Made by a program: the position numbers and the translations under genes
Notes under the pieces: generated by a model
The model's input: only the letters and a program-made list of their open reading frames with translations
Told to the model about the DNA's origin: nothing
The model's database searches: none
Shown: one piece after another, positions 2,941 through 26,202 of the stretch
How positions within the stretch are numbered: position 1 is the first letter of the stretch
Layout of the letters: the number at the start of each line of letters is the position of its first letter
Source: Candidatus Pacearchaeota archaeon
GTDB lineage: Archaea > Nanobdellota > Nanobdellia > Pacearchaeales > GW2011-AR1
DNA: 38,399 nucleotides
Reading direction: 5' to 3'
NCBI GenBank assembly: GCA_018304175.1
Contig: JAGVWT010000003.1
Span: 100,695-139,093, forward strand

Positions 2941-4050
2941 TTAAATCTTTAGAATAGATTCCTTACCAGTTTTCAAATCTTTGACTTTGAAAGTTTTTAA
3001 TTTAACTTCTTTTTTACCGACGAAAACTGCTTTTTGAATTTTGTACGAGTTTGCGTACTCAAGCGCTTTCGAAGGCTTACCATAATAAATAGTAACTGAA
3101 TTTTCCGAGTTCCTGAGTTCCTGCGCGAGTTTTATCGCTTCAGCGTTTTTACTTAGAGAAACAACAAGAATTTTCTCTTTTTTTGTTTTGATTTTTGCAA
3201 GCATACACAATCTTTCAACACCGAAAGAAATTCCTGTAGATTGAATATTGTTAATCAAATAACTTCCTCCTGCTATTGCTTGAGTTTCAAAAACACTTCC
3301 ATTGTAATAACTCAGTCCCCTAACCAAACTCGGTCGGAATTTAACATCAACACCATAACTTTTACATGATTTTTTCAGCTCCAATATTTCTGAATATGAT
3401 TTATATCTCTTGAAAAAAGATTCTGGTTTTTTTATTATGTCTAAAATTTTCTCAGCATTATATTTCTTCAAATTTTCCTTAATCTCTTTTTCCGGCAATT
3501 TGTCAAGCTTGTCTATTTCTCTTAATACTTCATTTACATCTTTTATGTTTTCCTTATTTAGTATTTCATTTAATAATCTTCTGTTATTTACATTAATTTT
3601 ATTTTTTATCCCTAGTTTTTTCATAATTTCAGAAGCCATGGCTAAAATTTCTCCTTCGTCTTTTATTGTTGAACCTATAATATCTGCGTCACACTGAGTA
3701 AATTCTCTGAATCTGTTTTCTGAAACAGGTTCGTCTCTGAATACAGAACCGATTTGGTATCTTCGGTAAGGGAGCTTTTTGTTTTTTGCAATTCTCTTTA
3801 ACTGAAATGTGAATTCGTATCTCAAAGCGAGTTTTCTTTTTCCCTTGTCGCTTAACTTGAAAATATCAGAAACAGCTTCATCCCTTTCATTTTCACCTTT
3901 GACAAATTCTTCGTACTCAATTATTGGTGTTTCAGCCGGTTCGAAGCCATATTTCTCAAAAGTTTCAACTAGGATTTTTTTTATTTCTGTTCTTTTTTCT
4001 GCTTCATCGCCCGTGTAATCGCTGAAGCCTTTTACTTTTTCGTTTTTCAT
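2941..4050 (-). CDS. hisS: Histidine--tRNA ligase (compact, 369 aa)
   Basis: Motif 1 ETPIIE, LRYEFT, motif 2 YQIGSVFRDEP...RFREFTQCDADIIG, RGLSYYNGSVFE, motif 3 GISFGVERL, C-terminal anticodon-binding domain. Confidence 0.93.
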   Translation of the reverse strand: MKNEKVKGFSDYTGDEAEKRTEIKKILVETFEKYGFEPAETPIIEYEEFVKGENERDEAVSDIFKLSDKGKRKLALRYEFTFQLKRIAKNKKLPYRRYQIGSVFRDEPVSENRFREFTQCDADIIGSTIKDEGEILAMASEIMKKLGIKNKINVNNRRLLNEILNKENIKDVNEVLREIDKLDKLPEKEIKENLKKYNAEKILDIIKKPESFFKRYKSYSEILELKKSCKSYGVDVKFRPSLVRGLSYYNGSVFETQAIAGGSYLINNIQSTGISFGVERLCMLAKIKTKKEKILVVSLSKNAEAIKLAQELRNSENSVTIYYGKPSKALEYANSYKIQKAVFVGKKEVKLKTFKVKDLKTGKESILKI

Positions 4051-4059
4051 TTTTTAAAA

Positions 4060-4174
4060 AGGGCGGAAACTAAAATTCTCGCGAATTTTGTAAACCACCT
4101 TTTGCCTCACAAAAGGGCGGAAGCTCCAACAAGTTGGGCAAACCTCCCTCTCCATTTCATTTCGAGGGCGGAAG
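4060..4174 (-). repeat. Three copies of the tRNA-His 3' end TTCCGCCCT (4165-4173 in the tRNA; 4114-4122; 4060-4068)
   Basis: AGGGCGGAA on + strand at 4060, 4114 and 4165; the latter two extend to AGGGCGGAAG. Confidence 0.85.
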
Positions 4175-4296
4175 GGGAGAATCGAACTCCCGTCTTACGG
4201 AATTCGCGAGCTCTCTCGGAATTGACAAATCAAATTTGCCTTTTTCGACCATCACTCACCACAACCGCATGTTCTAGCCACTGAACTACAACCGCC
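4167..4296 (-). tRNA. tRNA-His(GTG) with encoded G-1 and 57-nt intron at 37/38 (4258..4202)
   Basis: G-GCGGTTG TA GTTC AGTGGCTA GAAC A TGCGG TT GTG G [intron] T CCGTA AGAC GGGAG TTCGATT CTCCC CTTCCGC C. BHB: TTGT/GCGA central helix, GAGT/GCTC outer helix. G-1:C73. Two U-U mismatches in the acceptor stem. Confidence 0.88.
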
Positions 4297-4611
4297 ATTA
4301 TTTAATTTAGTTAAGAATACTATAAAAAAGTTCTCGTAAGAATCTGAATTGATGAAAGCACAGCTAGAAAAATTGTTTTCAGTGATGAACTAAACTCCAA
4401 GTTTTAGCTTTCATAAAATACAATAAGAAAAGTTGTTTTTAAACCTTTTTATAGACCAACTTGGTTGTTTGGAAATTGTTTCGTTTCTTCTGTTTCGCTC
4501 AAATATTATCTTAATCTTTAACATAAAAAACCAAAGAAAATCTTGAGCGATAGTGGACGATTAAGGCGAGCACTTTAAGTTGGAGCGAGCGTGAACTGTA
4601 AAAATAAAAAA

Positions 4612-19219: not shown

Positions 19220-19290
19220 GGTCCTTTAGTCTAATGGTAGAACACCTCGTTTACACCGAGGAAGCGGAGGTCCGATTCCTCCAAGGACCA
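19220..19290 (+). tRNA. tRNA-Val(TAC)
   Basis: GGTCCTT/AAGGACC acceptor, CCTCG-TTTACAC-CGAGG anticodon arm, GGAGG-TCCGATT-CCTCC T arm; CCA not encoded. Confidence 0.92.
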
Positions 19291-25583: not shown

Positions 25584-25600
25584 ACGCCCCGACCAGGAAT
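25584..25600 (-). repeat. 17-bp direct repeat of the tRNA-Ser 3' end (att-like)
   Basis: ACGCCCCGACCAGGAAT at 25584-25600 and 25678-25694. Confidence 0.9.
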
Positions 25601-25678: not shown

Positions 25679-25759
25679 CGCCCCGACCAGGAATCGAACC
25701 TGGATGCCTGTAAAGGCCAAGATTTCCAATCTTGTGCAATACCATTATGCGATCGGGGC
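25679..25759 (-). tRNA. tRNA-Ser(GGA)
   Basis: GCCCCGA/TCGGGGC acceptor, G73, CAAGA-TTGGAAA-TCTTG, long variable arm GCCT-TTAC-AGGC, CCAGG-TTCGATT-CCTGG. Confidence 0.95.
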
Positions 25760-26028: not shown

Positions 26029-26040
26029 TTTTTATTGAAA

Positions 26041-26177
26041 CGCCCACGCCGGGAGTCGAACCCGGGTTTCCAGCGTTCTGCGCATTTTTCTCTCCAAAAG
26101 GAGGGGTTAGTATAAGGGGAAACTTGGTTCCCCTCATGCGCGACAGGCTAGCGTCATAGCCGTTAGACCACGTAGGC
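26041..26177 (-). tRNA. tRNA-Asp(GTC) with 65-nt intron at 37/38 (26140..26076)
   Basis: GCCTACG/CGTGGGC, G73, CTAGC CT GTC G [intron] C GCTGG. Clean BHB: CTGT/GCAG central helix, GCAT/ATGC outer helix. Confidence 0.93.
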
Positions 26178-26202
26178 ATTTAGTAAAAATATCAATTTTC
26201 AA

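Follow-up and report, generated by a model that had tools for sequence, protein, structure and literature searches.

Probable tRNA-end cassettes between the tRNA-His and hisS genes of a Candidatus Pacearchaeota archaeon, candidate points of tRNA-like processing

Introduction

In this archaeon tRNA-His and hisS are both encoded on the minus strand, the tRNA gene 115 nt upstream of hisS, and the spacer between the two genes holds further pieces of the tRNA. What are these pieces, and do they control the synthetase gene that follows them? The initial annotation of the window (the whole stretch of DNA analysed here, 38,399 nt on contig 14 of a 0.54-Mb genome in 17 contigs) proposed that alternative folds of a tRNA-His/hisS co-transcript could link intron splicing or 3' processing of the tRNA to the translation of hisS, for example through autoregulation by the histidyl-tRNA synthetase (HisRS) similar to that at the E. 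coli thrS operator. In that operator, a mimic of the anticodon arm of tRNA-Thr is bound by ThrRS.

Results

Architecture of the spacer

The features of the locus are collected in Table 1. The encoded G-1 of tRNA-His faces C73 (4167), no CCA is encoded, and the intron bears a good hBHBh' motif, as read from the sequence. The product of hisS combines a class II core with an HGTP anticodon-binding domain. A search of positions 3950-4400 against Rfam at a permissive threshold returned the tRNA and no further family. Two adjacent U-U mismatches, at 5:68 and 6:67, interrupt the acceptor stem of the tRNA (4289-4295 with 4168-4174, minus strand); they are common to G001 and G002, two genomes of the same genus.

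Table 1. Features of the tRNA-His/hisS locus and of two further tRNA genes of the window.
Feature	Position	Strand	Description
tRNA-His(GTG), intron-bearing	4166-4296	minus	ARAGORN with introns, 4166-4295; Rfam RF00005 tRNA, 45.5 bits
tRNA-His G-1	4296	minus	
tRNA-His exon 1	4259-4295	minus	
tRNA-His exon 2	4167-4201	minus	
tRNA-His BHB intron	4202-4258	minus	57 nt, at 37/38
tRNA-His promoter, BRE/TATA-like	4320..4333	minus	GAACTTTTTTATAG; starts 38 nt before tRNA position 1; PWM score 5.0
S1, genuine tRNA-His 3' end	4165..4173	minus	TTCCGCCCT; positions 67-74 and one trailer base
Unit A	4114..4152	minus	partner GAGAGGGAGG (4152-4143), TTTGC, CCAA-CUUG-UUGG, AGC, copy S2, TTTT
S2, second copy, within unit A	4122-4114	minus	TTCCGCCCT
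Hairpin 1	4098..4116	minus	CCUUUUGU-GAG-GCAAAAGG; S2 and its T run snapping back onto CAAAAGG
Unit B minihelix	4061..4099	minus	GGTGG, TTTAC, AAAATTC-GCGA-GAATTTT, AGT, TTCCGCCC, TTTTT
Core hairpin of unit B	4089-4072	minus	AAAAUUC-GCGA-GAAUUUU
Anti-BHB segment	4078..4093	minus	complement of the intron/exon-2 junction, 4210-4195
S3, third copy	4060..4068	minus	TTCCGCCCT; 10 nt before the hisS ATG
hisS	2941-4050	minus	369 aa, ATG at 4050; Pfam PF13393 (9.4e-30), PF03129 (4.5e-07)
tRNA-Ser(GGA)	25679-25759	minus	3'-end copy at about 25585-25600
tRNA-Asp, cassette example	26040-26178	minus	

The two extra copies of the tRNA-His 3' end that had been reported between the tRNA and hisS are exact (S2 and S3), and the 38.4-kb window contains no further exact copy of TTCCGCCCT. 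The 115-nt spacer is made of two tandem units built on one scaffold, in the order antisense partner, TTTRC, small hairpin, AGY, TTCCGCCC and T run, so that each unit reads as a rod-like hairpin, held together by pairing between its 5' partner and the copied acceptor strand and followed by a U run. A covariance model built from unit B sequences alone scores unit A at 27.6 bits. The inserts between the copies measure 42-45 nt and hold no ORF, no integrase and no larger element.

In unit B, GGUGG (4099-4095) pairs with the CCGCC of S3 (CCGCC + C, 4066-4061), and AC pairs with (A)GU, while UUU and UU stand between the outer helix and the core hairpin; the resulting structure of 5 + 2 + 7 pairs contains one internal loop, closes in a tetraloop, has no T loop and ends 10 nt before the ATG. 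GGUGG mimics G-1 to G4 of tRNA-His, and the GGUGG/CCGCC helix reproduces its pairs G-1:C73, G1:C72, the wobble pair 2:71, G3:C70 and G4:C69. The U-U mismatches that follow these acceptor pairs in the tRNA are reproduced as well.

All three hairpins named in the initial annotation are present, but the first needs a different pairing register: GAGAGGG-A-GG of the unit A partner takes the copy CC-G-CCCUUUU as its pairing strand instead of CUUCC, and CCAA-CUUG-UUGG is enclosed between the two. Hairpin 1 can be extended to CCGCC/GGUGG, and it overlaps the partner of unit B.

Several other readings of the spacer were tried and set aside. The word AAATGAAA occurs at 4162-4155 and again at 4052-4045, where it includes the hisS start codon; it recurs where unit A starts, and unit A of a related locus, L047, opens with the same words. 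As a decoy of the hisS start this repeat is too short and too AT-rich, and may be due to chance. A 17-codon upstream ORF from 4159 is not conserved, its L047 version stopping after 2 codons, and the antisense pieces were rejected as C/D-box guide RNAs, no D box (CUGA) being seen by eye beside the guides.

Counterparts in related genomes

Among related genomes of the Pacearchaeota/Woesearchaeota type, unit B follows tRNA-His in G002 (loci L013/L035), H14-bin003 (L031/L038), G112 (L071) and G072 (L086), and unit A follows it in L047, where the copy has diverged and the partner co-varies with it. The same-genus genome G001 has neither the units nor the tRNA-His intron. The unit B model finds matches in 16 of the 151 genomes of the family, and a pattern scan of metagenomes gave one contig (30,262 bp), the same as L038, and no new species. 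Among the relatives with units, hisS is the next gene only in G112; another gene follows in G002, H14-bin003, L047 and G072.

Covariation, which the initial annotation had named as a check on its folds, was found in these relatives as compensatory stem changes in unit B, unit A and hairpin 1. Every difference between the unit B stems of the source genome and G002 is compensatory (two A-U to G-C pairs), and the loops remain of the GNRA type, being GCGA in the source genome, GUAA in G002 and GCAA in H14-bin003. Hairpin 1 of G002 uses the real tRNA end and has undergone a compensatory change from G-C to A-U; in H14-bin003 it is replaced by a different element, module C. The copy of L047 has drifted to CTTCCACTC and its partner has changed along with it, an A-G mismatch becoming a U-A pair. 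This change settles the pairing register of unit A in support of our revision, and it shows that the hairpin is kept, not the identity with the tRNA. The copy of G112 has drifted from the tRNA sequence too; the G-1:C73-like pair of the acceptor mimic is kept in the source genome, G002 and H14-bin003.

In an alignment of three genomes, all 14 pairs of unit B are formed in every sequence (100% of cells), 2 of them with compensatory changes. A wider alignment of 14 model matches, which was fitted to the structure of the model and includes weak matches, has 97% of its cells paired and double changes at 10 of the 14 pairs; this level was reached by none of 500 shuffles, and slid controls pair in 30-59% of cells. 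Between the source genome and G002, unit B is identical at 41 of 51 nt, the His intron at 49 of 57 (86%) and the tRNA-His exons at 63 of 73, whereas for hisS the identity is 63% in the protein, 47% over third codon positions and 40% over four-fold-type sites. Set against the 40-47% at silent sites of hisS, the conservation of unit B points to constraint or to recent spread. As a fallback, the initial annotation had offered the scar of a duplication or an integration. That view comes closer to our results than an operator does, but the units are conserved and structurally constrained, and so they are not simply decaying scars.

Module C (TTACGACGACCACGCTTGGGCGRAGTC) is a third conserved element of these trailers, and contains the antisense of the tRNA-His 3' end (GGGCGGAAG). 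It was seen behind tRNA-His in L031, L050, L054, L069, L008, L033 and L086, with or without unit B.

Evidence for a common transcript of tRNA-His and hisS

In 24 of the 30 loci examined in relatives, tRNA-His stands upstream of hisS on the same strand, and in nine of these 24 only 9-31 nt separate the real tRNA end from the ATG of hisS, a gap that leaves no room for a promoter. A promoter precedes the tRNA in the short-gap relatives, and none precedes hisS. In relatives, a small gene (...FVCKYNRFRS...) that resembles low-molecular-weight phosphatases or ArsC is often found between the two genes (L008, L011, L013, L014, L022, L023, L027, L036, L040, L041, L054, L060 and L069); the source genome has no such gene there.

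Promoters of the source genome were scored with a position weight matrix (PWM) built from the regions upstream of its tRNA genes (RAAnCTTTTAAAtA), whose motif begins 34-37 nt before most tRNA 5' ends and whose training sites score 4.8-13.9 (median 9.1). The AACTTTTTTATAGT of the tRNA-His promoter is conserved in G001 and G002. For 208 of 393 long ORFs the matrix scores 6 or more in the 90 nt before the ATG, and in 114 of these 208 (55%; 114 of all 393) the motif begins 31-35 nt before the ATG, which indicates that the mRNAs of this genome are mostly leaderless. At the leaderless position of hisS the best score is 2.9 (AGAATTTTAGTTTC), at a site that is not conserved in G002. The strongest TATA-like site, GCCCTTTTTAAAAA (4064-4051), was rejected as a hisS promoter because it would start transcription inside the ORF. 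A scan for bacterial-type terminators and promoters called no terminator. From the synteny, the short gaps and the lack of a hisS promoter, hisS is very likely transcribed together with tRNA-His, in agreement with the co-transcript first assumed, and the tRNA-His promoter probably also drives hisS. Against this, the U4/U5 runs behind the copies could terminate archaeal transcription before hisS.

The 10 nt between S3 and the ATG (TTTTTAAAAA) are an ordinary spacing for a junction of tRNA end and ATG. Counting S3 of tRNA-His, six tRNAs of the source genome are followed by a co-oriented ORF after 5-15 nt; the five others are a tRNA of the window (19220-19290, plus strand, ORF after 14 nt), tRNA-Ser(CGA), tRNA-Ala, tRNA-Leu(CAA) and tRNA-Cys, and the ORFs behind them, of 83-386 aa, have no room for a promoter. 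Transcripts that join a tRNA to an mRNA and are processed to near-leaderless mRNAs may be common in this genome.

Cassettes of the same design at other tRNA genes

At least 18 of the 37 tRNA genes of the source genome carry copies of their own ends (with at most 1 mismatch in 10), those of the 5' end 66-148 nt upstream and those of the 3' end 41-132 nt downstream; reciprocal controls in the same genome gave 0 matches. The 5' cassettes run copy, module, antisense, and the 3' cassettes mirror this order with the module reverse-complemented. Both units of the tRNA-His/hisS spacer match the design, with an end copy, an antisense partner and a module hairpin, distal to the real tRNA end. Measured from the distal decoy copy, and not from the real tRNA, the promoters of the source genome stand at their usual upstream distance, which suggests that the distal copies mark ancestral junctions and that the DNA between is an insert. 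By similarity, 18 cassettes and introns of this genome fall into one cluster, the tRNA-Asp and tRNA-Gly introns among them, and a likeness to the 3' cassette of tRNA-Lys/Glu was found for the His intron (z 4.7-5.5).

A blastn search of unit A, unit B and the intron against the whole source genome gave no paralogs above chance. The core of unit B (RAAATTC-loop-GAATTTY with TTTRC...AGY flanks) recurs in other contexts: behind tRNA-Trp in G128, where the partner is GGCAU and the copy, GUGCCCA, is tRNA-Trp's own end, behind tRNA-Cys in G072, and inside a tRNA intron in L083. Judged by this distribution, the units are not a histidine-specific control switch. Cores of the unit B type were also seen beside duplicated starts of protein genes, on the opposite strand, at L075, L078 and L080 (G076, G102 and G122), for instance where TTTTGCCATTTTT occurs twice and adjoins a gene that begins MAKEKQNMNVVFVGHVD; the cassette type may therefore extend past tRNA genes. 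Our literature searches retrieved no publication that describes these cassettes or a tRNA-His/hisS linkage in DPANN archaea.

Folding of the trailer

Locally, unit A folds with -17.3 kcal/mol and unit B with -13.2 kcal/mol, and the two rods together (-30.5 kcal/mol) are nearly equal in energy to a nested fold (-32.2 kcal/mol). Since the copies are identical, either neighbouring copy can pair with each partner; a shifted set of pairings is weaker by about 10 kcal/mol. The whole trailer folds no better than its shuffles (z -1.0) and the 261-nt stretch only weakly better (z -1.65), so that the cloverleaf-like minimum-energy fold of the trailer carries no weight.

Discussion

One part of the original proposal concerned the tRNA-His intron. 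As described there, AATTCGCGAG (4087-4078) is the exact complement of 4210-4201, the 3' strand of the intron BHB motif; in our analysis the match extends to 14 of 16 positions (4093-4078 with 4210-4195). If this segment paired with the intron/exon-2 junction, it could block or time cleavage by EndA. Of shuffled trailers, 2.6% contain a complement of at least 10 nt to some part of the pre-tRNA. This match is, however, the only one at p<=0.03 among 34 equivalent tests of flanks and introns in the source genome, about as many as chance alone would yield, as the original caveat about the palindrome TCGCGA allowed. In G002 the pairing loses two pairs through changes in the loop and the intron side is unchanged, and H14-bin003 keeps unit B although its tRNA-His has no intron. 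Control of splicing by this pairing is hardly credible to us. The bases of the segment belong to a locally conserved hairpin, as its 5' arm and loop, and we judge the complementarity to be a by-product of their palindromic content, TCGCGA and AATT.

An operator of the thrS kind was a tempting reading, with HisRS binding the acceptor-like minihelix beside its own start codon, or the TTGTG hairpin, and repressing translation. The G-1:C73 pair is the main identity element of HisRS, and unit B keeps a pair of this type together with CCGCC, 10 nt from the ATG; in G112, too, unit B lies between tRNA-His and hisS. As in thrS, a tRNA-like hairpin stands just upstream of the start codon of the cognate synthetase, but here it mimics the acceptor end and not the anticodon arm, and it is one member of a family that occurs at other tRNAs as well, not specific to hisS. 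The tie to a synthetase start breaks down in relatives, orthologous units preceding other genes in four of them, and the same core, with the ends of other tRNAs, stands behind tRNA-Trp and tRNA-Cys and also lies in an intron. Nor is the TTGTG of hairpin 1, taken at first for a mimic of the anticodon loop, conserved; G002 has ACGCAG in its place. With the copies drifting from the tRNA sequence in L047 and G112, and with neither TTGTG nor the anti-BHB pairing maintained in relatives, the operator is unsupported and, given the distribution of the family, an unnecessary hypothesis; we consider it very unlikely. What stands of the alternative folds first envisaged is that the mimics of the acceptor end can pair in more than one way; a hisS-specific operator does not follow from them. 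A folding relay or attenuator would use this freedom. In the chain formed by the tRNA 5' strand with S1, the unit A partner with S2 and the unit B partner with S3, one state would consist of three local helices, with a hairpin and U5 just before hisS, and the other of shifted pairings, S1 with the unit A partner and S2 with the unit B partner, that leave S3 open, and the folding or processing of tRNA-His would thereby govern read-through into hisS. The exchangeable partners, the near-equal energies of the rods and the nested fold, and the compensatory change of hairpin 1 (the shifted pairing) in G002 are in line with such a relay. H14-bin003 lacks hairpin 1, however, the shifted set is the weaker by about 10 kcal/mol in a reading that is built on predicted folds, and we know of no established case of hairpin-dependent termination by an archaeal RNA polymerase. 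We find a relay as improbable as the operator.

We propose instead that the spacer consists of inserted, structurally constrained tRNA-end cassettes that are candidate points of tRNA-like processing, a reading that as a whole appears to us probable, with room for doubt. That the units are conserved tRNA-end cassettes, in identity and in history, seems likely from the comparisons above, and we hold this part with good confidence; a role for them in processing or punctuation is a more tentative suggestion. Two tandem hairpin cassettes would have been inserted into a once direct junction of tRNA-His and hisS. Each insertion would have duplicated the tRNA end, the partner (GGGAGG or GGUGG) forming the base of the rod with the fresh copy CCGCCC, and this would explain why the last copy still stands 10 nt before the hisS ATG. 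A single promoter, the one before the tRNA, would serve the tRNA, both units and hisS. The antisense partner would lock the decoy copy in an inert hairpin and prevent it from mispairing with the real tRNA, and sequestration of the decoy in a stable rod would account for the compensatory evolution. As an acceptor-type minihelix with a G-1:C73-like pair, unit B would probably be cut by RNase Z as a tRNA 3' end is, leaving the hisS mRNA with a short leader of 10 nt that would suit a genome of the leaderless type and would equal the leader expected had no cassette been inserted. RNase Z (contig 14, 1802-2683; 313 bits), RNase P RNA (78 bits) and EndA are all encoded in the source genome, so unit B may be cut like a tRNA end; recognition by RNase Z is uncertain, since unit B has no T loop and only 5 acceptor-like pairs. 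The more exact claim, that RNase Z cuts behind the discriminator of the mimic, just as it would behind the real tRNA end of relatives, and thereby gives hisS the near-leaderless 5' end that it needs for translation, strikes us as doubtful. The drift of L047 with its pairing kept appears to fit any stable hairpin better than a mimic of the tRNA.

The same cassettes could also be selfish or neutral footprints and nothing else, two partial duplications left by a mini-element that targets tRNAs or by repeated integration and excision of the att type, their hairpins serving the propagation or the harmlessness of the element and doing nothing for tRNA-His or hisS. This would agree with a design that many tRNAs and some starts of protein genes have in common, that occurs in both orientations and that is mirror-symmetric between 5' and 3' cassettes, with its patchy presence (none in G001, and the few model matches in the family), and with the lack of paralogs of either unit in a genome whose relatives have related cores at other tRNAs. 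It is harder to reconcile with a unit B that is conserved to roughly the same degree as the tRNA exons when genomes with saturated silent sites are compared, with stem changes that are compensatory throughout and with copies that enclose no integrase or larger element. Recent spread instead of selection at this locus could produce the conservation of unit B. On balance we regard footprints alone as possible but rather unlikely. For the origin of the cassettes themselves we favour a small non-autonomous element that would rebuild the tRNA end upon insertion; we found no enzyme or mechanism that would generate the sense-antisense-sense pattern of the DNA.

Several known systems resemble parts of this locus. 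The E. coli thrU-tyrU-glyT-thrT-tufB operon is a mixed operon of tRNA and protein genes. As in such operons, tRNA and mRNA would here share one transcript from which processing of the tRNA releases the mRNA; unlike thrU-tyrU-glyT-thrT-tufB, the genes are a cognate pair of tRNA and synthetase, in an archaeon with mostly leaderless mRNAs. Integrative elements of archaea leave partial duplications of tRNA genes (attL/attR), and a tRNA-disruption model has been put forward (Sugahara et al. 2012, PMC3293823). There as here, a direct repeat of a tRNA end flanks the inserted DNA, the insert supplies a replacement end so that the gene stays intact, and the displaced copy keeps the old flank. Our inserts differ in their length of 42-45 nt, in the lack of a recombinase, in repeats of 9-13 nt, in the antisense partner with which each insert pairs its copy, and in covariation of the RNA type. 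Duplication by an integrase-bearing element was accordingly rejected: the repeats are there, but they enclose 42-45 nt without an ORF, and relatives have the same short units.

The t-elements (Hölzle 2008 and 2012, as described in PMC4326828) resemble tRNAs in structure and are substrates of RNase P and tRNase Z; one of them lies upstream of the 5S rRNA of Haloferax volcanii. They share with unit B an acceptor-like helix directly upstream of an RNA whose 5' end it could define, and the processing enzymes are encoded in our genome as well; they differ in that unit B has no T loop or full tRNA-like fold, its cleavage is putative, and its acceptor strand repeats the end of the neighbouring tRNA letter for letter. 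Mobile or transposed BHB introns have been described in archaeal tRNA genes (reviewed in PMC4090602). The cassette modules that cluster with two tRNA introns, the likeness of the His intron to a 3' cassette and the unit B-type core in the L083 intron recall them, but our units are not within the mature tRNA and could not be removed through a BHB. Such a motif has, at its two cut sites, 3-nt bulges with a 4-bp helix between them. A trailer unit as a BHB intron was rejected for two reasons: cutting at equal offsets in the identical repeats would need a self-complementary 4-mer in CTTCCGCCCT, and none is there, and the antisense partner stands at the wrong end of the unit.

What could these cassettes mean for the biology of this archaeon and its relatives? 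Small inserts, conserved and constrained in structure, that copy a tRNA's own end, pair with the copy and share modules with tRNA introns would be a little-known layer of archaeal tRNA gene architecture, and they bear on the origin of tRNA introns, of split tRNAs and of leader and trailer elements. At this locus a thrS-like operator is removed as a tempting false lead; a hisS gene without a promoter of its own appears to hang on its cognate tRNA, and the insert preserved the junction of tRNA end and ATG. If RNase Z does cut after the mimic, HisRS output would be physically tied to the transcription and correct folding of tRNA-His, and the interchangeable pairings of partners and copies could relay whether the acceptor stem of tRNA-His has formed. 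The locus thus offers a testable case of tRNA 3' processing that may create a translatable mRNA end in DPANN archaea.
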